Assembly: GCA_030765625.1 (NCBI GenBank)
Contig: JAVCCF010000037.1
Span: forward strand, 1,716 to 65,715
Source of the DNA: Candidatus Tenebribacter burtonii
GTDB lineage: Bacteria; Cloacimonadota; Cloacimonadia; Cloacimonadales; TCS61
Length of the DNA: 64,000 nucleotides
Direction: 5' to 3'
Shown: in pieces, positions 5,098 through 64,000 of the stretch
How the letters are laid out: the number at the start of each line of letters is the position of its first letter
Position numbering within the stretch: position 1 is the stretch's first letter
The notes under the pieces: generated by a model
What the model was told of the DNA's origin: nothing
Seen by the model: only the letters and a program-made list of their open reading frames with translations
Database searches by the model: none
Position numbers and translations under genes: made by a program

Positions 5098-5433
5098 ATG
5101 AGAAAGACTTTTAAAAAATTTGTTACTTTGCTGATAATATCTGGTATTGGGTATTTAGGGCTGAAGATATATCAACTTTTCAAAGGTCTTATTGAATTGG
5201 ATAAAACTCTTCCGCAGTATCTAGGTAATATTATTGGTGAAGTTCCAATTATATCAATTACTGCAATATTCAATAAAATTACTATTACAATTAAATACAG
5301 TAAAACTATCATCAAGAAAAATGAAAATTTAGAAAACATAATCCAAGATTATGTTACAGATTTTTACCCCATCTTTAAAGCTGATAATGTGAAAGTATTA
5401 ATAGAAGAATCCATTAAGGAAGAGCAGAAGTAG
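5098..5433 (+). CDS. hypothetical small membrane-anchored protein
   Basis: ORF with one N-terminal hydrophobic helix (FVTLLIISGIGYLGLKIY). Start ambiguous (ATG 5080 or 5098). Followed by a strong terminator. Confidence 0.4.
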   Translation: MRKTFKKFVTLLIISGIGYLGLKIYQLFKGLIELDKTLPQYLGNIIGEVPIISITAIFNKITITIKYSKTIIKKNENLENIIQDYVTDFYPIFKADNVKVLIEESIKEEQK

Positions 5434-28199: not shown

Positions 28200-28684
28200 T
28201 TTATTCTTAACTACACAGTTAACATTTTTCTGAATAATAAAAACAATACAAAATTTATTCAATTGTTCCGTAATTTCTTTCTGTAAGCTATCTATCTGTA
28301 AATAAATACGTTAGAACAACTATAAATCATTCAAACGTAAAACATAAATATTTTTTTTAAGTGGCTTCGTCACAATTTCAGGATTTTCGACATATATAAG
28401 TAGTAGGGATAATTACATCCAAAAAAAAGTAATAAAACATGTTTATTAAAAAAATGAAATTTACACACTTAACAAATTTACTCTTTACAGAAAAAAACAA
28501 TTTAGCAGTTTTAGAAAGTGAAGTATATAAATCAAATAACATATTCTACATAGTAAAGAATAAGTTCATTCGGATAACTCCTCTCTGAGCGATCGGAGAG
28601 GACTGGGAAGAATTAAAGTAGAGAAATAAAGAAATTGACAAATAAAATTGAGATGAAAATAAAAATAAACAAATGGAGAAAAAT

Positions 28685-31471
28685 ATGAAAAAATATATTT
28701 TACTCGCAATTACCTTATTAATAATTTGCAGTTTATCAGCTAATACTGTATCCGGTTATGTATACTTAAATGGAGGTTCCGGTGTTATTACCAGTGTACA
28801 AGTTAAATTCAATCCACAAAGTAATGGAACAAATAATGTATATCTAAACCCGGATGAAACTGGATTCTATTCATATGAATTCAGTTCTGATGAATTTGAT
28901 ACTTATGATGTTACATTCAAATTGTATAGTAGTAATGGGGATTATTATCTGGTTCCCATTAATAATGTCCTGATTGATAACACTACTACACCATTAACTT
29001 TGGATGATGTTACGTTACAACCAATTACTAATTCAACCAATGTGGTTGTTTCCAACAATGAAAGTATACCAGCTTTCCGATATATTCAGGATGCAGTAGA
29101 TTATTTGTCTATTCGTAATAGTGGTACAGTTACAGTTCTTCCAGGAACCTATACTGGTAATAGGAATAAGAATATTAATTGGTCACCAACGGGTGCAAAT
29201 TTCAACGAGAGACATATTAAAGTAATAGGAGTAGGTGAATGTATAATTGATTGCGAAGGAAGTGGGTATGCGTTTTGGTTTGAAGCTCCGTGGTGGTCAA
29301 ATTATCAATATACTATTGATGACGTGGCAGAAAATCTCATTATCAAAAAAGCCTATAGGGGGATTGTTATTACAAATGGTTCTCCGTTAATCAGAAACAA
29401 TATAGTTGAGAATTGCTCAATTCCAGGTTTTCATGAACTACATGGTGCAGGTATATATTGTGGGAGTTCTGCAATTATCGTAGGTAATACAATAAGAAAC
29501 AATGTTGCGAATTGGACAGATTGGGAAGATTCTAAGTCACTTGGGGGTGGGATTTATATTGAAAATAGTGATTTTAATAATGCTGCGAAAATTATAAATA
29601 ATATAATATCCGGTAATAGTGCATATAATGGAGGTGGAATTTATTGTACAGGTAGTGGTAGGATTGATCTATCTGGAAATACGATTACAGAAAACACTCT
29701 CGTAGAGGGTTCAGGTAATTTTCCTTACCCTGATGATCATGGGACTGGAATATATTGTCAGTTTGTTGATGATATAACAATTAAGGATAACCTTATATAT
29801 GGTAACATCCCGTACCCAGGTAGTTATGGAATTTCGCTTTTTATCGATTGTACTGATGCATTAATTTATAATAATACTATAATTGATAATATTGCTCATT
29901 ATGGAATTAAAATAAAAGCTTCTTCTTCTGCGATTATCGAGAATAATGTAATTTCAAACAATAGATATGGAATTCATAGATTTAATGGAGGAATACCCTT
30001 AACTGCTACTTATTGCTGTATAAGTAATAATACATCTGGCAACTATATCGGTGTAACTTCAGGAACAGGTTGTTTAGCAGAAAATGTTGATCCAAATCTT
30101 GATCAACAAACTTACCAGCCCCTCTGGATTTCAGATGCAAAATCTCCTTGTATTAATGTAGGTGATCCGGCCTTACCACTCGATCCAGATGGTACACCTT
30201 CTGATATTGGGGCAATACGAGCAATTAATCATACAATTGATACGGTTGAATTATTTGATGCTAACGAAGGTATCAACTGGAAATGTTTCCCTGTTCTGGA
30301 TGATATATATGCAGAAGAAGATATTGCCGCTAATGTACTCTATGACATAATGTCACCGCCTATTCCTGCCGCACTTGAATTAGTCGAAACTCAGGGTGGT
30401 GTTAATGACATTTATTTTGACACTTATTGGCATCATGATGATCAGCAATTTACAAGTGTAAAGGGTTATAAATTAGAAATGAATGAAGCTGCAACGTTAG
30501 AAATTACCGGTTTCTTGGAGTACCCTGAACAAATAATAAACCTGGTAGCAGGTGGAGAGAATTGGACCGGTTATTTCCTGGAAGAGAGCATGAATCCCTT
30601 TGATGCTCTGGCAGAAGTACTTGATAAGATAAATAGGATAACAACAAGAACTTTTACTTATATAAAATTAGCTGATAATAGTTGGCTGGGAATAGGTAAT
30701 ATACCAAGGGTTCCTACTTTAAATTATGGTGATCTGGTAATTGTTAATTGTACAGAAAATGGAAGTTTCTTCTGGGGAGAAGGTGGTGCCGGCACAGTTC
30801 CAATAGAAACACGCTCATCCTCCCAGGATTTTACCTATACGGAAGAAGCAGATTACATTCCTGTATATGTTGAACTCGATCTTGAAGCTCTGGATAATCC
30901 AACAGAAATAGGTATCTTTGTTGAAAATGAATGTAAAGGTGCAGAAGTAATTGAAGACACACTGGTTCAAATCCGTGCTTATGTTTTTAACGATTCTCTA
31001 ATATTGGATCCTGGTTCAGTAGAATTCCAACTTTCTTATGGTTCAAGAGCAGAGAATGTACTTATAGATTCATACACTATTAAAGAAAATCTTGATGATG
31101 CAGGTAGAATGGGAAAACTTGATTTCACACAAACACAAAATAGTTATTATTTGATTTCTCTAAATGAAGACGATAATAATGTACCTGAAGTAGCCAAGAC
31201 ATCTCTAAATCAGAATTATCCCAATCCGTTCAATCCATCCACTACTATTGCATATTCAATTCTAAATGATGGTATGATTGAACTCAAAGTTTACAACATC
31301 AAAGGACAATTAGTGAAAACTCTGGTAATGGGTGAACAACAAACAGGATCATATGAAGTTGTTTGGAACGGCAAAGACAATAACGAAAAGAATATTTCAT
31401 CAGGAGTATACTTCTACAAATTATCAACGAAAGATAAGACAATAATGAAGAAAATGTTGATTTTGAAATAA
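28685..31471 (+). CDS. large secreted right-handed beta-helix repeat protein with T9SS C-terminal sorting domain
   Basis: ATG 28685 follows GGAGA. Signal peptide. Many PbH1-like turns (GGGIYIENS, NGGGIYCTG, GTGIYCQ). Helix cap SPCINVGDP...DIGAI. Extra ~330-aa domain. CTD NYPNPFNPSTT...VYNIKGQLVKTL...SSGVYFYKL...KKMLILK. Confidence 0.75.
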   Translation: MKKYILLAITLLIICSLSANTVSGYVYLNGGSGVITSVQVKFNPQSNGTNNVYLNPDETGFYSYEFSSDEFDTYDVTFKLYSSNGDYYLVPINNVLIDNTTTPLTLDDVTLQPITNSTNVVVSNNESIPAFRYIQDAVDYLSIRNSGTVTVLPGTYTGNRNKNINWSPTGANFNERHIKVIGVGECIIDCEGSGYAFWFEAPWWSNYQYTIDDVAENLIIKKAYRGIVITNGSPLIRNNIVENCSIPGFHELHGAGIYCGSSAIIVGNTIRNNVANWTDWEDSKSLGGGIYIENSDFNNAAKIINNIISGNSAYNGGGIYCTGSGRIDLSGNTITENTLVEGSGNFPYPDDHGTGIYCQFVDDITIKDNLIYGNIPYPGSYGISLFIDCTDALIYNNTIIDNIAHYGIKIKASSSAIIENNVISNNRYGIHRFNGGIPLTATYCCISNNTSGNYIGVTSGTGCLAENVDPNLDQQTYQPLWISDAKSPCINVGDPALPLDPDGTPSDIGAIRAINHTIDTVELFDANEGINWKCFPVLDDIYAEEDIAANVLYDIMSPPIPAALELVETQGGVNDIYFDTYWHHDDQQFTSVKGYKLEMNEAATLEITGFLEYPEQIINLVAGGENWTGYFLEESMNPFDALAEVLDKINRITTRTFTYIKLADNSWLGIGNIPRVPTLNYGDLVIVNCTENGSFFWGEGGAGTVPIETRSSSQDFTYTEEADYIPVYVELDLEALDNPTEIGIFVENECKGAEVIEDTLVQIRAYVFNDSLILDPGSVEFQLSYGSRAENVLIDSYTIKENLDDAGRMGKLDFTQTQNSYYLISLNEDDNNVPEVAKTSLNQNYPNPFNPSTTIAYSILNDGMIELKVYNIKGQLVKTLVMGEQQTGSYEVVWNGKDNNEKNISSGVYFYKLSTKDKTIMKKMLILK

Positions 31472-31482
31472 CTCACCATGCT

Positions 31483-32134
31483 GTTCCTCTCTTTCCCGTA
31501 CTTAAAGAGAGGGAACATAAGATGCCATTGTGTATTTATGTTTGCGAAAGTAATCCTTCCGAAGGTTATGTAACTTTTAAAATAAGTCTTTGCCTTCGGA
31601 AGGTTATTGCTCATTATATTTCACTTGTATGCAAGTTGAACTTGCATACGCAGCCCAAGTTGATAAGTCCAACTTATCAACAAGAAGAAAGAATTCCAGT
31701 CAAGCTGAGGACGGTGTCCGGCAACTGACGGATGACAAAAAAGGAAAAATAAGTTTTCAAAGGCTTATAAAATGTAATCATCCTAAAAGCCCCTCTCTTT
31801 ATGCGTTGGCTTCGCGGACAGCGAAACACCGCTTGTCTTAACAAGGTTACTATGAAGAGAGGGGTTGGGGTGAGTTCGAGGAAATGTAATCCCCCTTTAG
31901 AAGGGGGAAAGTTCGGCTTAACCGAACAGGGGTTTCTTGAAAATAATACAATTAAAGATGTCGTTTTGCTTCAGTTCCTTCGTCGAATGTCGAAGAAGAT
32001 TTTCTCAGGAAGACGAAGCAAAAAAGGAGATTTATTTGAAAACTAAAACTATTTTTTCACTTGTTTTTAGCTTATTAGTTCTCGCCCCAAACTTCGTATC
32101 GGGGCAAGTCCTAATTTCCCCCTGTCAAGGGGGA
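31483..32134. repeat. intergenic array of at least ten distinct GC-rich stem-loops
   Basis: Examples with perfect stems: 31627-31649 GTATGCAAGT-TGA-ACTTGCATAC; 31659-31681 GTTGATAAGT-CCA-ACTTATCAAC; 31790-31799/31855-31864 CCCCTCTCTT/AAGAGAGGGG (long range); 31890-31908 TCCCCCTT-TAG-AAGGGGGA; 31911-31927; 32117-32134 TCCCCCT-GTCA-AGGGGGA. Also the near-identical 15-mers CCTTC[C/G]GAAGGTTAT at 31555 and 31593. Confidence 0.65.
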
Positions 32135-32147
32135 CAGATGGGGTTAA

Positions 32148-34454
32148 ATGAATTATAAATATATTTTTTTGTTCGTGCTAATTTGTGTAAATTCGCTGCT
32201 AAACTCCGTTACCTGGCACATCAAACAAGACGGCACAGGTAACTTCACCACTATACAGGCAGGGATAGATGCATCTGCTGATTTCGATTCCGTACTCGTT
32301 TATCCCGGAACGTATTATGAAAACCTGAATATAGATGCTAAGAATATTACTTTATCCAGCTTGGAGATGATCACCGGTGATCCACAATATATTGCTTCTA
32401 CGATTATAGATGGTCAACGTCAAAATAGTTGTATCATTTTGGAATATATAGATATTGATGTAACGATTCGTGGTTTTACCATCCAAAATGGTTATGGTAC
32501 ATTTTTACATGCATTTGAAGGTGCTGGAATCTATGCTATATACATAGAGAACGGAACAATAATGAATTGTAATTTCCAAAGTAATATTGCAACAAGAGGT
32601 GGAGCAATTTACACATGTAGAGTAGATCTCACTTTTTCCGGTCTTAGGATTACAGAAAATTCTGCGGGATTAGGTGGTGGTGCATTTTGGGATTACGACA
32701 GTACAATCATTTTTGATCCTGAAAATCGGTGTAATATTTATAATAATAATGCCGGCAAGGGCGCAGATTTATGTGCACAATATGAGGTAAATGTCAATGT
32801 TGTTGTCGATACTTTCACTGTATTCAATCCGGATAGATTTTTTGCAGAGTATAGAATGGATGCTTCTTATACATTCGATATACAAAATAACTGGATGGAG
32901 CTAGTGTCACAGGATCTTTATGTAGCAGTGGATGGAGATGATAATAATTCAGGCTTAACTCCTGGTGAGCCATTAAAAAATATATCATGGGCTGTTCGCA
33001 AAATTCAAGCAAATGAACAAGATCCCCATACTATTAACGTCTCAGCTGGTACATACTCACATGAGATAAATCAACAAATATTTCCCATTGGTTGTAAAGA
33101 ATATGTTTCTATAATTGGTGAAGATATGGAAACAACTATTTTAAATAATAACTATATGAACATTACAATTTTGGGGCTTAATTTAGCCGGTTTTACTGAA
33201 ATATCAAACTTTACTATTCAAAATGATTTTGATTTTGAAGCATGGTGTATAATGAATTTTCGAAGTATTGAATATTTAAAAGTTAACAATATAACCACAG
33301 ATGGAAATTCAAATATTAGGAGTATAATAGTAAGTGAGCATGTAGACAATCTTTTTGATAATATTATTGTAACGAATAATACTGCAAAAATCGTGGCAGG
33401 TTTTGCTTTGTTTGATAATACTGGTATTTTAAGGAATTGTATTATTAGTAATAATTCTTTAGTTTATAATCCTATATATCCAGGATCAACAGGTTTACAT
33501 TTAAATGCTTATGATCATTTTATTGTTGAAAATACTATTATTTCAAATTGTATTTCTTATGATAATGCTTCCTGTGTAAGTCGTTTAGCAACAGAATATG
33601 GTCAAAACGATAGTATAACTGTGAATAATTGTCTTATTTCAGGAAATAGTAGTAATGATGAATTTGTTATTGTTGTAGGTGGAGATGGTAATATAGAAAT
33701 TAACAACAGTACTATAGTCGATAATTACAATAATGCTAACACTATAAAAGCATTTGGTAATTTGACATTAAGAAATACAATTATGCATAATAATACAGAT
33801 TATGAAATTTATATGGAAGATAATACACAATATGGTTATATTTATGAACTTAATTTAGATCACTGCAATATCAAGAACGGTACAGATGGTGTTTACAACA
33901 TGAATAATGCCAACATCATTAACTGGCTGGAAGGCAATATAGAAGATGACCCGCAATTTGCAGGAGTTGGAGAATATCCATATCAATTAACTTCAGCTTC
34001 TCCTTGTATAGATGCAGGTACACCGGATACAATCGGCTTATTCTTGCCACCCTGGGATCTATTACATAATCAAAGAGTATGGGACGGTGATGATAACGGA
34101 ATTGCTATCATTGATATGGGTTGCTATGAATTTGGAGCAGATTCTGTTGGAGTATTCAATGATCCAATTCCAGTAACAGATTATCAATTAACTAACTATC
34201 CAAATCCTTTTAATCCGGAAACAAAGATAGTTTTCGATCTACCGGAATCCGGTCAGGTTAAACTGGAGATCTACAACATTAAAGGGCAGAGAGTAAAAAC
34301 ATTGTTAGATTGTTATATGAGTCCCGGCAGAAGCGAAATGGTTTGGAACAGTAAAGATGATAATGGTAAAAGAGTTTCTTCAGGAGTTTATTTCTATAGA
34401 TTAAATGTAAACGATAAAACTGAAAAGACAAAAAAAATGCTGTTGCTTCGCTAA
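32148..34454 (+). CDS. large secreted beta-helix protein (GGAI/GGGAF Pmp-like repeats) with T9SS C-terminal sorting domain
   Basis: Signal peptide MNYKYIFLFVLICVNSLLNS. Repeats RGGAIYTC and GLGGGAFW. Cap SPCIDAGTP...DMGCYEF. CTD NYPNPFNPETK...IYNIKGQRVKTL...SSGVYFYRL...KKMLLLR. Confidence 0.75.
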   Translation: MNYKYIFLFVLICVNSLLNSVTWHIKQDGTGNFTTIQAGIDASADFDSVLVYPGTYYENLNIDAKNITLSSLEMITGDPQYIASTIIDGQRQNSCIILEYIDIDVTIRGFTIQNGYGTFLHAFEGAGIYAIYIENGTIMNCNFQSNIATRGGAIYTCRVDLTFSGLRITENSAGLGGGAFWDYDSTIIFDPENRCNIYNNNAGKGADLCAQYEVNVNVVVDTFTVFNPDRFFAEYRMDASYTFDIQNNWMELVSQDLYVAVDGDDNNSGLTPGEPLKNISWAVRKIQANEQDPHTINVSAGTYSHEINQQIFPIGCKEYVSIIGEDMETTILNNNYMNITILGLNLAGFTEISNFTIQNDFDFEAWCIMNFRSIEYLKVNNITTDGNSNIRSIIVSEHVDNLFDNIIVTNNTAKIVAGFALFDNTGILRNCIISNNSLVYNPIYPGSTGLHLNAYDHFIVENTIISNCISYDNASCVSRLATEYGQNDSITVNNCLISGNSSNDEFVIVVGGDGNIEINNSTIVDNYNNANTIKAFGNLTLRNTIMHNNTDYEIYMEDNTQYGYIYELNLDHCNIKNGTDGVYNMNNANIINWLEGNIEDDPQFAGVGEYPYQLTSASPCIDAGTPDTIGLFLPPWDLLHNQRVWDGDDNGIAIIDMGCYEFGADSVGVFNDPIPVTDYQLTNYPNPFNPETKIVFDLPESGQVKLEIYNIKGQRVKTLLDCYMSPGRSEMVWNSKDDNGKRVSSGVYFYRLNVNDKTEKTKKMLLLR

Positions 34455-34527: not shown

Positions 34528-34752
34528 ATCCTTCGATACTTGGCTGAAGCCAAACTCAGGATGACTGATGTAGGGTCAATTCCCCGAATTGATCGATAAG
34601 TAATGTTAGCTTGTTTGAAAATCTACGGGTCAATTCTCCGAATTGACCGGACTAACGGACGATTAGGGATAATCGTCCCTACAGTACACTCTTGTTGATA
34701 AGTTAAACTTATCAACTTAGATTGTGTCCGCTATCCGGCAACTGCCGGATGC
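34528..34752. repeat. second intergenic stem-loop array sharing modules with 31483-32134
   Basis: 34528-34565 is a minus-strand GTCATCCTGAG element (ATCCT/AGGAT stem with inner TTGGC/GCCAA). 23-mers GGGTCAATTC[C/T]CCGAATTGA[T/C]CG at 34573 and 34627 match at 21 of 23. 34657-34678 GGACGATTA-GGGA-TAATCGTCC. 34694-34716 GTTGATAAGT-TAA-ACTTATCAAC has the same stem as 31659. 34724-34752 is homologous to 31713-31736. Confidence 0.65.
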
Positions 34753-34797
34753 GAACGAGAAAAAAAGTGCATGCTATTAATTTTTACTTTATTATTT

Positions 34798-34910: not shown

Positions 34911-35900
34911 ATGAAAAGAAAAGATATAATTAATATAATTTTGTTTATAATGGTTTTTGCTTTTGCAGCATACCGGTATTTATCACGAACATATTCATCG
35001 CAAAGATCGGCTTTCGTAATGAATACATTAGTTGATATAAAAATTGAAACAAAACATAAAGAGACAAATGATATCTTGGATAATGCACTCAAATTAATAG
35101 AAGATTATGAAAATAAATTCTCATTCTATAAAAATGGAAGCCAAATTTGGAACTTTAATAATTCTGTGATAGACAGTTTATACATAGATGAAGATCTTGC
35201 TAAAATTCTATCCATTTCAAAAGAGCTCTTTCAAAAGACACATTCTCATTATGATATCACAATTGGTGCTTTATCAGAGATATGGGATTTTGATGATGAG
35301 GTCATTCCCACAAATGAAGAAATCGAAAAAGCAATTCAAGTTACAGATTTTAAAAAATTGAAGATCCAAAACAATTATTTGTATAAACCGGATGGGATAA
35401 AGATCAATTTGGGAAGCCTGGCAAAAGGCTTAATTATTGATAAAGTAGTTGAGTATCTAAATCAGCAGAATGTGATTTCAGGTTTTGTTAATGCCGGAGG
35501 AGATATGCGTATTTTCGGCACAGAAAAACCTTTTAAAATTGGAATCCAGCATCCCAGAAGCAAATCAAATGAGATAATAGATGTTATTAATGTGGGGAAC
35601 AGGTCTGTTGTTACATCAGGTGATTATGAAAGATACTTTATGAAAGATGGTAAACGTTATCATCATATTATTGATCCGCTTACAGGTTATCCTTCAAGAA
35701 ATGCTATTTCTGTTACAGTTATCTCTGAAACAGCTTTAATTGCAGATGCATATTCAACTGCTCTTTTTTTGTTAGAACCAGAACAAGCAATAGAATTTGC
35801 TGAAGAAACTTACGATCTTGAAGCTGTAATATATGTTATTATAGATAATGAGATAGAAAAACTTGAAACTCTTGGAATGAAGGAATATTATGAAAGATAA
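34911..35900 (+). CDS. apbE: FAD:protein FMN transferase (ApbE family)
   Basis: N-terminal membrane anchor. Motifs DITIGAL, GSLAKG, NAGGD, SGDYER, HHIIDPLTGYP. Confidence 0.85.
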   Translation: MKRKDIINIILFIMVFAFAAYRYLSRTYSSQRSAFVMNTLVDIKIETKHKETNDILDNALKLIEDYENKFSFYKNGSQIWNFNNSVIDSLYIDEDLAKILSISKELFQKTHSHYDITIGALSEIWDFDDEVIPTNEEIEKAIQVTDFKKLKIQNNYLYKPDGIKINLGSLAKGLIIDKVVEYLNQQNVISGFVNAGGDMRIFGTEKPFKIGIQHPRSKSNEIIDVINVGNRSVVTSGDYERYFMKDGKRYHHIIDPLTGYPSRNAISVTVISETALIADAYSTALFLLEPEQAIEFAEETYDLEAVIYVIIDNEIEKLETLGMKEYYER

Positions 35901-57668: not shown

Positions 57669-57755
57669 GCAGAAGTGGCGGAATTGGTAGACGCGCTAGG
57701 TTCAGGGTCTAGTGAGCAATTGCTTGTGGGGGTTCAAGTCCCCCCTTCTGCACCA
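57669..57755 (+). tRNA. tRNA-Leu (anticodon CAG), type II with long variable arm, CCA encoded
   Basis: Acceptor GCAGAAG/CTTCTGC. Anticodon stem CTAGG/TCTAG with loop TTCAGGG. T-arm GGGGG-TTCAAGT-CCCCC. Discriminator A plus CCA. Confidence 0.9.
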
Positions 57756-57765
57756 TATTTATAAA

Positions 57766-58329
57766 TCACATAAAGAATAAATGCTCAATAAGAATTTTCA
57801 ATCCAATTCCGATTAGAACTGTACCCCCGATAAATTCTATCTTATTCTCGAATAATGATCCAAATTTACCACCAAGATAAACACCCAGTAATGAAAGTAA
57901 AAATGTGATTATGCCAATAATTATTGCGGGTTGTATGATTTGAACTTGCAATGCAGAAAAACTAAGTCCTACCGCTAAAGCGTCAATACTGGTGGCAATA
58001 GATAGAACGAATACAGTTATCAAATTATTTGGATCACATTTACTTTCTGCCTTTTCGATCAGGAAAGATTCATAGATCATCTTACCGCCAATAAAAGTAA
58101 GTAAGCCAAAAGCGATCCAGTGATCGAATGCCGCGATGTAGTGTTGGAAACTAGTTCCCGCTAACCAACCTAACACCGGCATGAGTGCCTGAAAGCCACC
58201 AAAGAAGAAAGCAACTCGAAGAGCAGGACGTACTTTGAAACATTTTAAAGTAACTCCACTGGCAATAGAAACAGCAAATGCATCCATTGCTAAACCAAAA
58301 GCAATTAAAATTATTGTAATTATATTCAT
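57766..58329 (-). CDS. mntP: manganese efflux pump MntP family
   Basis: Two homologous halves with the DAFAVS / DALAVG motif. Six TM helices. 187 aa. Confidence 0.85.
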   Translation of the reverse strand: MNIITIILIAFGLAMDAFAVSIASGVTLKCFKVRPALRVAFFFGGFQALMPVLGWLAGTSFQHYIAAFDHWIAFGLLTFIGGKMIYESFLIEKAESKCDPNNLITVFVLSIATSIDALAVGLSFSALQVQIIQPAIIIGIITFLLSLLGVYLGGKFGSLFENKIEFIGGTVLIGIGLKILIEHLFFM

Positions 58330-58402
58330 TCAATCTCCAAAAACAAAACTTGAATTAAAAGATAATTAGTAAATGATTTTATCCTAACTATAAATTTTCC
58401 CT

Positions 58403-58541
58403 CGTTAACAAGTTGTATTTTTCTCATTAACAAGTTGAACTTGTTAACGCTACTGCTTTGTAAGTTTTACTTACGAACTTGTTTATTATGTAAGAAGTAT
58501 AACTTCAATATCAATTGTGTTCGCAAGTGCAACTTGCGAAC
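58403..58541. repeat. periodic array of AAGT-nnn-ACTT-apex hairpins
   Basis: 58427-58447 TTAACAAGT-TGA-ACTTGTTAA. 58457-58477 TTTGTAAGT-TTT-ACTTACGAA (one G-T pair). 58494-58506 GAAGT-ATA-ACTTC. 58519-58541 GTTCGCAAGT-GCA-ACTTGCGAAC. Centres are about 30-33 bp apart. An extra 5' arm copy at 58403-58414 can pair 12 bp with 58438-58449. Confidence 0.65.
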
Positions 58542-58563
58542 AAGAGATGTATAAATTTTGAAC

Positions 58564-58608: not shown

Positions 58609-58860
58609 ATGAAGACGTACAATATTGAATTAATTGAGAAAAGATTTGAAGAATTAATTGATCTCACTATTGATCATGACAATATTCTTAGAATTAAAAC
58701 CGGCAAAGGTAATGCAATTATAATCTCAGAAACAAAATGGAAATCAATTAAAGAAACTTTATTTCTTCTTTCAATTTCAGGTATGAGAGAATTGATAAAG
58801 AAAGGTATGAACACTCCTCTGGCTGAATGTAGTGAGGAATTGGAGTGGAAGAAAAGTTAG
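58609..58860 (+). CDS. Phd/YefM-family type II antitoxin-like protein
   Basis: 83 aa. MKTYNIELIEKRFEELIDL...GNAIIISETKWKSIKETLFLLSISGMRELIKKGMNTPLAECSEELEW is typical of Phd/YefM antitoxins. Start at ATG 58609 is preferred over the TTG at 58558. Confidence 0.8.
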   Translation: MKTYNIELIEKRFEELIDLTIDHDNILRIKTGKGNAIIISETKWKSIKETLFLLSISGMRELIKKGMNTPLAECSEELEWKKS

Positions 58861-58885
58861 AATTAAAAAAATAAAGGGATTTAAT

Positions 58886-61699
58886 ATGGAATCAATAATA
58901 ATTAAAATAATTGATTTAATTATAACATTTGCTTCAAAATCAATGAAAAAAGATTTTGAAATTGTAAAGTATCTGAAGAAAATGGGATTATTGAAATTAG
59001 AAGCTAATTTTGATTCAAGACTTATACATTCGTTAATTGAATTTGGTAAAAATAAAACTAATCTCAGATTCATTGAAGTTATGAAAGACAAAGTGTTACA
59101 AGAACTATTTCAAAAAGGAATATATGAAAATAAGCTTGATGAGTTTAAGAAAAAGGCTGAATTTACGCTTCATAAGAAATTAGCTTTTGAGAATATTACA
59201 TTGGATATACCATACGAGCAAATTATAGATGATTTTGTTTCAACTTTCGAAACAATTGATAAACAAACAGAAAGCAAAGCAATACTTGATTTTATAAACA
59301 ATACTAACTTGAAATTATTTGAATTATCTGAAACCAACTATAAAAACTCTTTCGAATACAAAATAGAAAAATACTTGGCTCAATTAATTGATGATTTCTA
59401 TAACAAGTTTGTGAATGATGATCTTTATGTAGACTTAAACGGTGTAACTAAAATTAAAACAAAAGTTCATCTGCATACAAAAGGAATAGTAAAAGAGGAG
59501 ATGAATGATAATTCATATGTTGAACTTAAAGCCGTAGCAGAAATAGATTATGAACCAATTGATAAATACATAAATGAATGGTTGGAAAAAGAAAATAAGA
59601 ATTTCCTGATAATCCTTGGAGAATACGGAACAGGCAAATCAACTTTATGTGAATATATTTCCTGTGATCTGGCAAAAGGTAATTTAAATCAGGGTGAACA
59701 AAAGATACAGGACAAAAAGCACAGAAAACCAATAATATTTAACCTGAGAAATTTTAGAAATCAGGGCCTCGAAGCCTTTTTAATATCTGAGTTAAGTATA
59801 AATGTCAATGAAGTATCATTTATTGAATTTAAAGAGAAATTGAAAAATGATGAATTCATATTGATATTTGATGGCTTCGATGAAATGGCAGCAGAAATAG
59901 ATGTAAGGGGGAAAAAAATTAATTTCGATTATATATTCGATATTTTAAAGTTCTATAAAAATAGTAAAATCATACTTACAAGTAGAATTGAATATTTCCA
60001 ATCATTGCAAGAACAATCGGAAGCATTAAAAGTGAATGAAGAAAATGTAGATACTATTTACATTAAATTATTTGAAGAACCTCAGATCTTAAAATTCCTA
60101 GAAAGAATGAAGGGAGAGCCAAATAAGAACTGGAAAGAGATAGAAGCTATTAACGGATTAAAAGATTTAGCAAAGAGACCGGTTCTCTTAAACTTAATCG
60201 TAAAACATTTAATGAAAATTCTTAAAGAAACAAAACAAGAAGTAAAATCGATTGATGTATTCAGTGCTGCCATCGATGATGAACTTAAAGAGATCAGGAA
60301 AAAATTCCGAAAAGATGATAGAGATTATGGAACAGATGACGCTACAAGGATGAGAATCTTACAGAAGGTTTGTATATCTCTTTTCATCAAAAATCAACTA
60401 AGCATTCCAATTATAGAAATAGCAGATTATGCTAAAAATGATCCTGATTTAAAAAATAAAAACGCAGCACAAATAGAAAACTATCTGACAAATTTCCATA
60501 CTTACACTTTCTTTGCTAGAGATAAAGATGATATTTTTAGAATATCACATAAAGCATTTATAGATTATCTGGCAGCAAAAGAGTTATATGAAGAAATTAC
60601 AAGCAATAAACCAGTGAACTTCGGGAAACAACAAATCAATGTTGCTATAATTCACTTTATCTTCGAAATGAAACCAAGTAAAACCAAATTGAAAAGATTA
60701 TTTAAAACTGCAGCAGAAACAACAGAAAAAACCAAATGGCAAAAAAGCAATGCAGTTAATTTAATTTTGAAAATTGATAATCCTCGATATGCTGGCAATG
60801 TCGATTTCAATTCAAGTGAAGTAAATTTGGAAAATTCTTATTTATATAATATTGATATTTTGATTGAATTGGAAAAATTAACAAATCTAAATTTAGCTAA
60901 GAATCAAATCAGCAACATATCACCACTACAGGAATTGAAGACTTTAGTTAGTTTAGATTTAAATAATAACCAAATCAGCGACCTATCACCGCTACAGGAT
61001 TTGAAGAATTTGACTATTATTGATTTGTCTATAAATAGAATCCGCAACCTAAAACCATTACATGGTTTGATAAACTTAATAAGTTTAGACTTATTCATGA
61101 ATAAAATTACAGACATTAAACCTTTGATTAATTTAAGGAATTTACAAAGTTTAAGTTTAGTAGGCAATGAGATCAATAATATTGAGATTTTGAAAGATTT
61201 TATTTATTTAGAGACTTTATTTTTAGCTGGTAATCAAATTAATGATATCAAGTCTTTGAGAGAATTAAAGACGTTAAAATGCTTAACTTTATCATACAAC
61301 CAAATCATCGATATCAAACCTCTGATAGGTTTAAAAAAACTTACTGATTTGAACTTACGTAATAATCGATTAAATAACATCGAATCTTTGAGAGAATTGA
61401 AGAATTTATTGTTTTTATGTTTAACAACAAATCAGATTAATGATATTGGACATTTGAAAGATCTGAAAAATTTAACAACTTTAGAACTTGCTTACAATCA
61501 AATTTGTGACATTCAACCTTTGAAAAATATGAAAAAGTTACAGCGTTTAATACTATCAATGAATAAAATTAATAATATTGATACTCTGAAAGAATTAAAA
61601 AATTTAACTGAATTATTAATAACTGGAAATCCACTTAAATCCTCTCAAATAGAAGAATTGAGGAAAGCTCTGCCCAAAACAAATATCGAATTTTATTAA
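58886..61699 (+). CDS. NACHT-type STAND NTPase with unassigned N-terminal domain and 12 C-terminal leucine-rich repeats (bacterial NLR-like)
   Basis: ATG 58886 lies 7 nt after AAGGGA; an alternative GTG at 58832 would overlap the antitoxin. Walker A GEYGTGKST (59618-59644). Walker B ILIFDGFDEM (59858-59887). ILTSR, KRPVLLNL, FRISHKAFIDYLAA. Then 12 x 22-aa LRRs. Confidence 0.8.
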   Translation: MESIIIKIIDLIITFASKSMKKDFEIVKYLKKMGLLKLEANFDSRLIHSLIEFGKNKTNLRFIEVMKDKVLQELFQKGIYENKLDEFKKKAEFTLHKKLAFENITLDIPYEQIIDDFVSTFETIDKQTESKAILDFINNTNLKLFELSETNYKNSFEYKIEKYLAQLIDDFYNKFVNDDLYVDLNGVTKIKTKVHLHTKGIVKEEMNDNSYVELKAVAEIDYEPIDKYINEWLEKENKNFLIILGEYGTGKSTLCEYISCDLAKGNLNQGEQKIQDKKHRKPIIFNLRNFRNQGLEAFLISELSINVNEVSFIEFKEKLKNDEFILIFDGFDEMAAEIDVRGKKINFDYIFDILKFYKNSKIILTSRIEYFQSLQEQSEALKVNEENVDTIYIKLFEEPQILKFLERMKGEPNKNWKEIEAINGLKDLAKRPVLLNLIVKHLMKILKETKQEVKSIDVFSAAIDDELKEIRKKFRKDDRDYGTDDATRMRILQKVCISLFIKNQLSIPIIEIADYAKNDPDLKNKNAAQIENYLTNFHTYTFFARDKDDIFRISHKAFIDYLAAKELYEEITSNKPVNFGKQQINVAIIHFIFEMKPSKTKLKRLFKTAAETTEKTKWQKSNAVNLILKIDNPRYAGNVDFNSSEVNLENSYLYNIDILIELEKLTNLNLAKNQISNISPLQELKTLVSLDLNNNQISDLSPLQDLKNLTIIDLSINRIRNLKPLHGLINLISLDLFMNKITDIKPLINLRNLQSLSLVGNEINNIEILKDFIYLETLFLAGNQINDIKSLRELKTLKCLTLSYNQIIDIKPLIGLKKLTDLNLRNNRLNNIESLRELKNLLFLCLTTNQINDIGHLKDLKNLTTLELAYNQICDIQPLKNMKKLQRLILSMNKINNIDTLKELKNLTELLITGNPLKSSQIEELRKALPKTNIEFY
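60869..61660 (+). repeat. 12 tandem 66-bp coding repeats (22-residue LRR units)
   Basis: Units of the form LxxLxxLxLxxNxIxDIxPLxx, e.g. LKTLVSLDLNNNQISDLSPLQD and LKNLTTLELAYNQICDIQPLKN. Confidence 0.9.
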
Positions 61700-61720
61700 T
61701 ATTAAAAAAGGTTTTTCATA

Positions 61721-61750
61721 AAAGGGCAACTCGTGAGTTGCCCCTACATA
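61721..61750. terminator. bidirectional terminator between the NTPase gene and leuS
   Basis: Perfect 8-bp stem GGGCAACT / AGTTGCCC (61724-61743), loop CGTG. T-rich sequence follows on both strands. Confidence 0.7.
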
Positions 61751-61792
61751 TTTTCTCTGTGTTCTTTGTTTCTCAGTGTCTCTGTGTTGATT

Positions 61793-64000
61793 TTATTTCG
61801 CTACTATACTAACAAGCTTCTTCGGTACAATTATCATTTTCAGGATATTTTTCCCTTCAAGTGATTTCTTCACATTTTCTACTTCCAAAGCCAGTTTCTT
61901 TATTTCATCATCAGTTGCATCAACCGAGACATTGATCTTACCACGTACTTTACCCATGATCTGAATAACATAAGTGATCTCATCCTGAACCAGATACTTT
62001 TCATTGAATTCGGGAAGTCCAGCTTCATGGAGCAAGTTTTCGTTTCCAATTTTCTCCCACAATTCTTCGCTGAGGTGAGGAGCAAAAACATACATCAAAT
62101 GCGGGATTGCAATACAGCTTTCTACAAATATAATTTTCTCAGCATTATTCAATTTATCTACATTCTTAATAGAGTAAACATTGTTCAGATGCTCCATGAC
62201 AGCTGCGATGGCTGTATTGAACTGCATTCTGTTTTCGATATCATTCAGTACTTTCTTTATTGTGAAATGAGTACTGTAACGCAGCTTTTTAATTTCTGCA
62301 CTTAATTCGTTATCTGACCCTTCGACTCCGCTCAGGGTGACAGACGTATTTTTTATTAGTTCCAGATTTTCATCAAACAATCTCCAAACACGATTCAGGA
62401 AACGGAATGCACCTTTCACACCTTCATCACTCCATTCCGAATCTTTATCAGGGGGAGAGGCAAACAGCATGAATACCCGCACTGTGTCAGCTCCGTAACG
62501 ATCTATAATATATTGCGGATCAACCACGTTGCCTTTAGATTTACTCATTTTAGCACCGTCTTTTGTAACCATTCCCTGTGTAAGCAATCTGGCAAAAGGT
62601 TCGTTAGATTTTACCATGCCCAAATCCCGCATAAATTTATGGAAGAAACGTGCATACATCAAGTGCATTACAGCATGCTCGATCCCACCGATATACTGAT
62701 CTACCGGAAGCCAGTTATCTGCAAATTCCTTACTGAATGGCATTTTATCATTTTTGGGATCAGCATAACGAGCATAATACCAGGAACTATCCACAAAAGT
62801 ATCCATCGTATCTGTTTCACGTCTGGCAGATTTCCCGCATTTTGGGCATTTTACATTAACCCAATCATCAACTGAAAGCAATGGATTCTGAGTTGTTTTG
62901 CCCAGTTCAACATTCTCAGGAAGTTTTATGGGAAGATCTTCATCGGAGACCAGAACAGTTCCGCAATCTTCACAATAAATTATTGGAATCGGATTTCCCC
63001 AGTAGCGTTGTCGGGAAATTCCCCAGTCACGAAGTCTGTAAGTTACCGTTTCTTTTCCCATGTTGTTTGCAGTCATCCATTCTGAAATAGGTTTTTGGGA
63101 ATTAACGCTGTCCATTCCATCAAATTTATCAGAATTTACCAATATCCCAGGTTCAGTGTAAGCCTTTTTCATCTCTTCCATGATCAGATCTTTATCTGGA
63201 TTCTGAATAACTATCTTCATAGGAATATCATATTTTTTGGCAAATTCGAAATCACGTTGATCATGGGTTGGAACAGCCATCACAGCACCGGTTCCGTAAT
63301 CCATCAGAACATAATTTGTGATCCAGATCTGAACCCTTTCACCATTAACCGGATTGATCGCAAACCTTCCTGTGAAGATCCCTTCTTTCGTTGTATCTTC
63401 AGCAGTTCTCGTAATAGTATCTTCATTTAAAACTTTATCACAGAATTTTTGCATCTCAGAATCTGTCGGTTCGTCTTTAAGCCAATTCGTAACCAGAGGA
63501 TGCTCAGGTGGAAGTGCCATGAACGTACAACCGAATATTGTGTCCGGTCTGGTTGTGAATACTTTTATCAGCTCATCCGAATTTTCCAGTTTAAACCAGA
63601 TCTCAGTTCCGAAACTTTTTCCGATCCAATTAGTCTGCATGGTCTTCACACGTTCAGGCCAATCTATAACTCTACTGAAATCGAGTAATTCTTCGGCATA
63701 ATCAGTAATTTTAAAGAACCATTGTTCCAATTCTTTCTGGCGTACTACACTACCGCATCGCCAGCATTTATTATCTTCTACCTGCTCATTTGCCAATACT
63801 GTCTGGCAGTCATCGCACCAATTCTGAAACGAAGTTTTCTTGTAAGCCAGTCCTTTTTCATACATCTTTTTAAAGAACCACTGTCCCCATTTATAATATT
63901 CCGGGTGACAGGTACTTACTTCACGATCCCAATCCATTCCAAAACCCATCATATCAAATTGTTTTCTCATAATATCAATATTATTATCAGTTGTAATTCG
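61793..64000 (-). CDS. leuS: leucyl-tRNA synthetase, N-terminus beyond window end
   Basis: The frame stays open to position 64000 (…RITTDNNIDIMRKQFDMMGFGMDWDREVSTCHPEYYKW…). Editing domain, KMSKS motif (GAKMSKSKGN), C-terminal anticodon-binding part. Confidence 0.95.
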   Translation of the reverse strand, partial: RITTDNNIDIMRKQFDMMGFGMDWDREVSTCHPEYYKWGQWFFKKMYEKGLAYKKTSFQNWCDDCQTVLANEQVEDNKCWRCGSVVRQKELEQWFFKITDYAEELLDFSRVIDWPERVKTMQTNWIGKSFGTEIWFKLENSDELIKVFTTRPDTIFGCTFMALPPEHPLVTNWLKDEPTDSEMQKFCDKVLNEDTITRTAEDTTKEGIFTGRFAINPVNGERVQIWITNYVLMDYGTGAVMAVPTHDQRDFEFAKKYDIPMKIVIQNPDKDLIMEEMKKAYTEPGILVNSDKFDGMDSVNSQKPISEWMTANNMGKETVTYRLRDWGISRQRYWGNPIPIIYCEDCGTVLVSDEDLPIKLPENVELGKTTQNPLLSVDDWVNVKCPKCGKSARRETDTMDTFVDSSWYYARYADPKNDKMPFSKEFADNWLPVDQYIGGIEHAVMHLMYARFFHKFMRDLGMVKSNEPFARLLTQGMVTKDGAKMSKSKGNVVDPQYIIDRYGADTVRVFMLFASPPDKDSEWSDEGVKGAFRFLNRVWRLFDENLELIKNTSVTLSGVEGSDNELSAEIKKLRYSTHFTIKKVLNDIENRMQFNTAIAAVMEHLNNVYSIKNVDKLNNAEKIIFVESCIAIPHLMYVFAPHLSEELWEKIGNENLLHEAGLPEFNEKYLVQDEITYVIQIMGKVRGKINVSVDATDDEIKKLALEVENVKKSLEGKNILKMIIVPKKLVSIVAK

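Follow-up and report, generated by a model that had tools for sequence, protein, structure and literature searches.

Small covarying hairpins in Candidatus Tenebribacter burtonii and a hairpin-flanked transposase gene in related Cloacimonadota

A 64,000-nucleotide stretch of the genome of Candidatus Tenebribacter burtonii (Cloacimonadota; contig JAVCCF010000037.1, positions 1,716 to 65,715), referred to below as the window, contains seven small hairpins that are built around the same core, AAGT-N3-ACTT, and lie at three intergenic loci, at 31.6, 34.7 and 58.4 kb. What are these hairpins, and why do they stay foldable while parts of their stems change? The original prediction, made without database searches, considered a repetitive extragenic palindromic (REP)-like element, a recombination substrate, an RNA element and a terminator. 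With a probability of roughly 0.8, we believe that the hairpins are REP-like repeat copies of a REP-associated tyrosine transposase (RAYT) of the subclass 2.6/group 5 type, an HUH/Y1 enzyme of the IS200 superfamily, in a Cloacimonadota lineage. Labels from L011 to L219 designate the contigs or loci that were compared.

Hairpins with a common core and covarying stems

An exhaustive hairpin scan of the window revealed a perfect 10-bp stem with a 3-nt loop at four sites (31627-31649, 31659-31681, 34694-34716 and 58519-58541); shorter relatives are found at 58427-58447 (9 bp), 58457-58477 and 58494-58506. The coordinates and sequences first given for these hairpins were all correct on re-reading, and each hairpin is indeed located between long open reading frames (ORFs). 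That they exceed chance, which had been argued from a uniform base composition, was confirmed in 100 first-order Markov simulations (the GC content of the window is 33%): seven AAGT-N3-ACTT cores are seen and 1.6 +/- 1.2 are expected, and 3-nt-loop stems of 9 bp or more number seven, five of them members of the family, against an expected 0.94 +/- 0.89. As single-stranded DNA, the three hairpin regions fold to exactly these hairpins, with z-scores of -5 to -7. The cores of the 31.6 kb doublet are 32 bp apart, and those of the 58.4 kb module are separated by 30, 33 and 30 bp. When a covariance model of the unit was applied to the whole window with filters off, it retrieved no members beyond the known hairpins. 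The 31659 and 34694 hairpins, each of which follows one of two paralogous type IX secretion cargo genes, have the stem GTTGATAAGT and a downstream motif in common and are therefore paralogous, not independent, copies. A hairpin at 5335 (AACATAATC CAA GATTATGTT), which is within a small ORF and has no such core, is chance-like and was rejected as a family member.

The family unit is ca. 33 nt long and oriented, with the consensus 5'-(C)TC-N-GTT-nnn-AAGT-TGN-ACTT-nnn-AAC-N-CAAT-3'. Flanks and loops go together. The CTC-type 5' flank is combined with the loop TGN in a ratio of 42 to 1, and the combination of 5' ATTG and 3' GAG flanks with the loop NCA (40 to 0) is the same unit inverted. A unit can stand alone, form one half of an inverted doublet or be part of a module with three to five hairpins; in 73 of 98 cases the distance between neighbouring cores is 30-31 bp. 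A central CAATTG is common to the inverted doublets, both that formed by the 31627 and 31659 hairpins and that of the 34694 hairpin with its probable variant partner; one example reads CTCT-TGTTGATAAGT TGA ACTTATCAACA-CAATTG-CGTTAGCAAGT TCA ACTTGCTAACG-AGAG. The architecture of the 31627/31659 doublet recurs in L139, L140, L192, L197 and L202, and GTTGATAAGT is the commonest doublet partner stem in Cloacimonadota loci. Some partner hairpins, in L213 and L190, retain the basal stem and have the apical AAGT-N3-ACTT replaced by ATCCGGC AACT GCCGGAT. The stretch at 34721-34759 of the window is probably a partner of this kind, judging from its basal stem and flanks of the family type, the GC-rich hairpin in place of the apical core and its fold (3 bp, a bulge and 7 bp).

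The order of hairpins in the larger modules is CGTTACGAAGT, GCGAAGT and TGTTCACAAGT when there are three; in modules of four or five it is CGTT(A/T)ACAAGT TGA, TAAGT TTT, GGAAGT ATA and TGTTC(A/G)CAAGT GCA, exactly as at 58427-58542 in the window. The fourth hairpin there has an 11-bp stem (58518-58542), within which lies the 10-bp stem of the hairpin scan (GTTCGCAAGT GCA, 58519-58541).

Covariation was analysed in an alignment (A1) of 106 hairpins that were found solely through the AAGT-N3-ACTT core and not selected by the database pattern described below. In this alignment 80.3% of the cells of the 11-bp stem were paired, compared to 65.7% in shuffles, and the covariation score was 0.349 compared to 0.132. 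None of 500 shuffles reached 0.349, and controls in which the alignment was slid gave 0.05-0.12. Next to the core, 42 hairpins have a CG, 38 a GC and 17 a UA pair; the pair after it is GC in 51, AU in 18 and CG in 17. Thus, the proposal that structure is kept rather than sequence, which had been based on a few hairpins of the window, holds at the scale of the family. G:T exceeds A:C by 22 to 8 among oriented imperfect units, whose copies are not independent; this excess hints weakly at one particular strand as the folded form.

Dispersal in Cloacimonadota and the associated RAYT gene

Family members are not confined to the window. We scanned one genome per species for 185,579 species with the pattern GTTSRYAAGTNNNACTTRYSAAC, which covers only 8 of many stem variants and leaves the S, R and Y positions free to mismatch. 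The scan retrieved 83 loci, with about 30 chance matches expected by a rough estimate. Further members thus came from related genomes, in the kind of scan that had been proposed at the outset: by record title, 63 of the 83 loci belong to Candidatus Cloacimonadota metagenome-assembled genomes (MAGs), including those of Ca. Tenebribacter davisii and Ca. T. mawsonii. The free positions of the Cloacimonadota matches are complementary in 97-100% of cases, while 50% is expected per position. A single MAG has up to 8 loci; the window has three in 64 kb. None of the 73 modules in the Cloacimonadota loci overlaps an ORF of 90 aa or more, and 56 of them have an ORF on both sides, with 41 between co-directional, 9 between divergent and 6 between convergent genes. 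Several modules are found at a contig end or within ca. 100 nt of one, a hint of assemblies broken by multi-copy repeats. A search of the literature on Cloacimonadota repeats yielded nothing relevant. The family belongs to the already known kind of REP-like small palindromic repeats, here in a little-studied phylum.

Contigs of the same species from Antarctic lake samples (L121-L132) carry the same hairpins; most of their aligned length is ca. 99-100% identical to the window. In one strain set (L127-L130) the first doublet hairpin has decayed to GTTCGCAAGT TAA ACTTGCTAAA, and the doublet is placed in another order relative to other intergenic modules. Contigs of T. mawsonii and of Antarctic-lake metagenomes gave the best cross-species matches to the window. 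Several Gluconobacter genomes (L155, L164, L188 and L215) contain a perfect palindrome, GTTCATAAGT N3 ACTTATGAAC, at an apparently orthologous site, where aaatcttatgtttctatct is the conserved adjoining flank; this palindrome probably has no connection with the Cloacimonadota family.

In eight genome loci, hairpins of the family flank an ORF of ca. 179 aa on both sides. A forward unit and a short GGAAGT N3 ACTTCC hairpin end ca. 11 nt before its ATG, and a short TAAGT hairpin that overlaps the stop codon is followed by an inverted unit. The forward unit upstream and the inverted unit downstream are seen in L157, L187, L175, L184, L196, L204 and L211. The encoded protein scores 25.7 bits with the Pfam model Y1_Tnp (cut-off 23) and 99.7-106.7 bits with the NCBIfam equivalog NF047646, "REP-associated tyrosine transposase" (cut-off 80). 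With the IS200 model NF033573 it reaches 18-25 bits, which is below the cut-off of 55. H60 and H62 of the HUH motif and Y138 in QYIHxNP are invariant; the best and only match among solved structures is the E. coli TnpA-REP 4ER8, and this match is weak (E 0.035). A RAYT or TnpA(REP)-type gene, which the original prediction had proposed to look for, is thus present in related genomes, physically associated with the hairpins and above the NCBIfam cut-off for its family.

The motifs of the protein are E/N/D-H-L/F-H, VWQEGF and YIH(Q/L/N)NP, with 78 residues between motifs. The signature of TnpA-Y1 subclass 2.6 comprises a length of ca. 179 aa, NH[LIV]H, WQ, YIH[QN]NP and a median HuH-to-Y distance of 82; members of this subclass are mostly from Bacteroidetes, lack GT[AG]G and are bordered by secondary structures, described as atypical, that are copied elsewhere in the genome (PMC6006769). 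Group 5 RAYTs have moderately abundant flanking 16-mers (Bertels et al. 2017, PMC5581495). By length and motifs alone, the gene fits TnpA-Y1 subclass 2.6, which is RAYT group 5.

A metagenome scan with an alignment of the protein retrieved 80 homologous loci, with 45-86% identity and a GC content of 0.31-0.64. A perfect hairpin of at least 10 bp is present within 300 nt of 78 of the 80 homologues, and in 60 such hairpins occur to either side of the gene. Hairpin density in these loci is 3.8 per kb near the RAYT gene and 0.10 per kb elsewhere. The commonest hairpin is CGTTCCCAAG(T/C) loop (A/G)CTTGGGAACG, and hairpin type shifts with gene lineage: a paralogue that is 50-56% identical is accompanied by CTTTACGAAGC AGA GCTTCGTAAAG.

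Viral contigs of the IMG/VR database were scanned with a loose pattern, which retrieved at least 120 stretches; most of the matches listed are chance-like. Five contigs (L011, L053, L054, L059 and L112; GC content 0.39-0.61) contain multiple copies of CTCGTTCCCAAGT N3 ACTTGGGAACG together with single half-sites CTCGTTCCCAAG. The presence of the former is explained by its being the commonest hairpin type around RAYT homologues. No RAYT gene was found in the viral stretches compared, and the five contigs may be host DNA or prophage borders.

How the window relates to the RAYT gene can be seen from the closest relatives, L216-L219, where the gene is flanked by CGTTAACAAGT, TGTTCGCAAGT and TGTAAGT hairpins, the types present at 58427-58542. 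Hairpin 1 of the 58.4 kb module is of the CGTTAACAAGT type, which flanks the RAYT gene in L216-L219, and the stem of hairpin 4, TGTTCGCAAGT, flanks it in L219, L175 and L204. Hairpin 2 has its counterpart in the TAAGT/TGTAAGT hairpin abutting the RAYT stop codon, and hairpin 3 in the GGAAGT N3 ACTTCC hairpin ca. 11 nt upstream of the start codon. The four-hairpin module of L179, located upstream of leuS, has no gene, and neither do the modules of L183, L163 and the window. Since the hairpin types of the RAYT flanks recur at 58427-58542 and the L179 module lacks the gene, the 58.4 kb module is best read as two putative RAYT flanks joined, with the gene absent. In L218, which is 86-88% identical to positions 57727-58547 and 61720-64000 of the window, the RAYT gene is situated ca. 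0.93 kb beyond the counterpart of the window's right end and is flanked by CGTTAACAAGT and TGTAAGT, to which L219 adds TGTTCGCAAGT. From this synteny, the RAYT gene of the window genome is predicted to lie ca. 0.9 kb beyond the right end of the window.

Such joined flanks could also be expected if an active IS200-type insertion sequence (IS) had given rise to the hairpins as its ends and as miniature derivatives, similar to miniature inverted-repeat transposable elements (MITEs) or palindrome-associated transposable elements (PATEs), and if the 58.4 kb module were an internally deleted, still transposing IS. The RAYT gene is located exactly between module hairpins 2 and 3, gene-less modules exist, and MITEs derive from IS elements by such internal gene loss; subterminal hairpins for a Y1 transposase and gene-less derivatives with two ends are features that IS200/IS605 elements and PATEs have in common with our family. 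In addition, one MAG, RS_12_26, contains two RAYT copies in different contexts (L157 and L211). However, these two copies are just ca. 67% identical, and so are not recent IS copies. The protein, unlike IS200/IS605 transposases, is below the IS200 cut-off and above that of the RAYT model. Its gene also differs from these elements in the divergence of its copies and in its syntenic position across species: it adjoins a stretch homologous to the leuS gene of the window in 8 loci, where its identity is 60-86%, a conserved neighbourhood and a divergence that together look like vertical inheritance. We consider an active IS improbable.

Reading of the hairpins as RAYT-associated repeats

E. coli TnpA-REP and the TnpA protein of IS608 are established models for the mechanism that we propose. 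The former (PDB 4ER8) reportedly binds folded single-stranded REP hairpins, a result associated with the 2012 work of Messing and colleagues and of Ton-Hoang and colleagues. By analogy, we infer an enzyme-substrate relation between the RAYT and the hairpins, and activity on single-stranded DNA. The RAYT would bind the hairpin folded on single-stranded DNA, for example at a replication fork, and would read the shape of the stem and a few fixed bases, namely the apical AAGT/ACTT and the basal GTT/AAC. It would then cut and rejoin nearby, allowing the repeats to spread and persist. The bases of the mid-stem would not be read and could drift, and we propose that they remain complementary because only copies that fold stay substrates. 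Free drift of the mid-stem combined with a requirement for folding would explain the covariation.

The arrangement can be compared with several known systems. REPtrons with subclass 2.6/group 5 enzymes (Quentin et al. 2018, PMC6006769; Bertels et al. 2017, PMC5581495) have, like the Cloacimonadota family, a protein of ca. 179 aa with HUH, WQ and YIH[QN]NP, inverted small hairpins on both sides of the gene, no GT[AG]G, intergenic copies and a gene that keeps its chromosomal position across species. The flanking structures of subclass 2.6, mostly from Bacteroidetes, were published as atypical and weak and were found solely by manual inspection (PMC6006769), whereas the Cloacimonadota hairpins are strong, with perfect 10-11 bp stems, 3-nt loops and a clear consensus, and are further distinguished by diversified covarying mid-stems and by modules of up to five hairpins. 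The E. coli REP/BIME sequences are likewise short extragenic palindromes that occur singly, in inverted pairs and in clusters and are linked to a Y1 HUH enzyme, but they have an unpaired GTAG head, imperfect bulged stems and larger loops, and the similarity of the enzymes is marginal (E 0.035).

In Pseudomonas REPINs (Bertels and Rainey 2011, PMC3116915) the inverted doublet is the unit, inheritance is mostly vertical and the RAYT gene is single-copy; the doublets of Cloacimonadota can be likened to them. Two REPs of a REPIN pair into one long hairpin, whereas each Cloacimonadota unit is self-complementary and partners usually have different stems. GTAG- and CGTC-tagged REPs (Di Nocera et al. 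2013, PMC3733652) resemble our family as short stem-loops that form head-to-head dimers and intergenic clusters. Their tags are unpaired, and the CGTC type has stems of 8-9 bp, loops of 4-5 nt and no transposase (PMC3733652), while the Cloacimonadota units have CGTT within the stem, a 3-nt loop and an associated transposase gene. Identity with CGTC-tagged REPs is ruled out by these differences in tag, stem, loop and transposase (PMC3733652). A likeness between TGTTCAC...GTGAACA and parS half-sites was considered and set aside.

The positions of some modules are suggestive of a function for the host. Elements acting in cis, such as operators (e.g., of the Phd/YefM-like protein encoded at 58609-58860) or promoter or leader elements, could be expected in the divergent region between mntP and the Phd-like gene, where the 58.4 kb module lies, and the core spacing of ca. 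30-31 bp corresponds to three helical turns. A three-hairpin module is found 29-53 nt upstream of a phosphoglucomutase/phosphomannomutase (PGM/PMM)-family gene, at orthologous positions, in 8 MAGs (L138, L144, L152, L170, L186, L199, L209 and L214), and a related one 30-81 nt upstream of aspS in 4 loci (L137, L147, L182 and L198). The hairpin closest to the gene is TGTTCACAAGT in most of these loci. However, the operators of one regulator would conserve sequence, and the mid-stems of the family vary yet stay complementary. The excess of G:T over A:C, a weak argument given copies that are not independent, is a strand asymmetry unlike duplex DNA binding. As for the Phd/YefM-like protein, the four-hairpin module is also seen where no Phd homologue is nearby, both in L179, L183, L163 and L165 and around RAYT genes, the sole Phd match being at the orthologous locus in L218; operators of this protein were rejected as an explanation of the 58.4 kb module. 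We regard host-functional elements in general as quite improbable.

The copies at 31.6 and 34.7 kb follow type IX secretion cargo genes at distances of 156 and 240 nt, as might be expected of ordinary transcription terminators or stabilisers of mRNA 3' ends that are alike by coincidence, and E. coli REPs can stabilise upstream mRNA (cited in PMC6006769). However, no member was terminator-like in a terminator scan or has a T tail, and the 58.4 kb module and 9 of the 56 fully flanked modules lie between divergent genes. The hairpins are therefore not ordinary terminators, contrary to one of the alternatives raised at the outset, and a specific association with a transposase gene is also unexpected for terminators. 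We judge this explanation to be highly improbable. The RNA element that had been offered as another alternative fared no better: nothing specific points to an RNA role, and a search for known structured RNAs in Rfam returned only one tRNA at gathering thresholds and chance-level matches (E ca. 0.9) in E-value mode. In contrast, the REP-like or recombination-substrate reading of the original prediction is supported by dispersal, covariation and the flanking of RAYT genes.

Several points weigh against the hairpins being RAYT repeats. No RAYT gene was found inside the 64-kb window by tblastn. The GTTGATAAGT doublets at 31.6 and 34.7 kb are never directly beside a RAYT gene in the loci examined, and their tie to the enzyme would be by common format only. 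The canonical unpaired 5' GT[AG]G is missing, the units being flanked 5' by (C)TC-N and 3' by CAAT, although its absence is itself reported for subclass 2.6 (PMC6006769). Copy number per MAG is known only as up to 8 loci, for 8 stem variants, and neither a transposition event nor a presence/absence polymorphism was demonstrated among the loci compared. Finally, the modules just upstream of housekeeping genes are at orthologous sites in several MAGs, which fits old, vertically kept insertions and also fits a host function.

What is noteworthy in the Cloacimonadota family is the combination of unusually clean triloop hairpins, diversified covarying mid-stems and, among the modules, a gene-less copy of the putative RAYT flanks. 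To our knowledge, work on REP/RAYT systems has been almost confined to Proteobacteria, and we know of no characterised substrate of group-5 (subclass 2.6) RAYTs. The family provides a clean consensus, (CT)C-N-GTTnnnAAG(T/C)-loop-(A/G)CTTnnnAAC-N-(GAG), much of which is present around most of the 80 metagenomic homologues at a GC content of 31-64%. The natural stem variants of Cloacimonadota reveal the positions that vary freely, a ready design for binding and cleavage assays. The repeats may account for contig breaks in Cloacimonadota MAGs and are to be masked before small RNAs, operators or terminators are called in these genomes. It is conceivable, if on the unlikely side, that the host has recruited modules for regulation or for the organisation of its chromosome, or that the stem variants constitute a specificity code for RAYT paralogues. 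The modules of the PGM/PMM and aspS genes are kept at 29-81 nt upstream across MAGs in which the proteins are just 76-90% identical. Either possibility, if true, would give the uncharacterised group-5 RAYTs their first defined substrate.

Features and gene context of the window

The hairpins and their neighbouring genes are listed in Table 1.

Table 1. Members of the hairpin family and neighbouring genes in the window; "REP unit" is used in the sense of the preferred reading.
Feature	Position	Strand	Sequence and remarks
Type IX secretion cargo gene	28673-31471		
REP unit, forward	31627-31649		5' CACT flank, loop TGA: GTATGCAAGT TGA ACTTGCATAC; first half of inverted doublet; covariance model R1, 30.9 bits, E 2.6e-4
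REP unit, second doublet half	31659-31681		GTTGATAAGT CCA ACTTATCAAC, then AAGA; hairpin scan
Type IX secretion cargo gene	32148-34454		
REP unit	34694-34716		5' flank CTCTT: GTTGATAAGT TAA ACTTATCAAC; covariance model, 30.5 bits; identical in strain-level contigs L127-L132
Probable variant partner	34721-34759		ATTG, TGTCCGC-T-ATCCGGC AACT GCCGGAT-GCGAAC, GAG; inferred assignment
apbE	34911-35900		
mntP	57766-58329	minus	
Truncated left arm	58400-58415		CTCGTTAACAAGTTG; partial unit just 5' of the four-hairpin module; read from sequence
Hairpin 1 of four-hairpin module, forward	58427-58447		CTCA flank: TTAACAAGT TGA ACTTGTTAA; 33.7 bits, E 5.7e-5
Hairpin 2, short inner	58457-58477		(TTT)GTAAGT TTT ACTTAC(GAA); 6 bp perfect, 9 bp with one G.T
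Hairpin 3, short inner	58494-58506		GAAGT ATA ACTTC; 5 bp
Hairpin 4, inverted	58518-58542		5' ATTG, 3' AGAG: TGTTCGCAAGT GCA ACTTGCGAACA; 34.7 bits, E 3.3e-5
Phd/YefM-like gene	58609-58860		
NACHT-LRR (STAND NTPase) gene	58886-61699		Directly after the Phd/YefM-like gene
leuS, incomplete	61793 onward	minus	Runs off the right end of the window

The Phd/YefM-like and NACHT-LRR pair (58609-61699) lies as an insertion between mntP and leuS; in the related L176 these two genes are direct neighbours. The contigs with the NACHT gene all end inside leuS. The pair is possibly a defence island, with the four-hairpin module at its left border.

Strains that are ca. 99% identical downstream differ strongly in the type IX cargo genes, which encode a beta-helix and a C-terminal sorting domain (28673-34454 compared to positions 1890-8565 of L127). 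The proteins are 932 and 768 aa long in the window and 1312 and 774 aa long in L127, and the intergenic modules are reordered. The region 28673-34454 is a hypervariable surface-protein locus. Its 677-bp spacer (31471-32148) contains several further short GC-rich hairpins, for example GTTCCCTCTCTTT...AAAGAGAGGGAAC past the stop codon, CCTTCCGAAGG / CCTTCGGAAGG, TCCCCCTT TAG AAGGGGGA and, at 32117, TCCCCCT GTCA AGGGGGA. Some of the spacer hairpins are conserved in L127.

A second hairpin family, with a GTAG head, is present in the window at 34570-34592 (plus strand), 34628-34648, 34657-34685 (minus strand) and 61724-61750 (minus strand). Examples are GTAGGG TCAATTC CCC GAATTGA, GTAG GGACGATTA TCCC TAATCGTCC and GTAG GGGCAACT CACG AGTTGCCC. 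These hairpins look like classical GTAG-type REPs. Relatives such as GTAGGGGCAATTCACGAATTGCCC are found in other Cloacimonadota loci, often beside AAGT units (L140, L197, L161 and L204).

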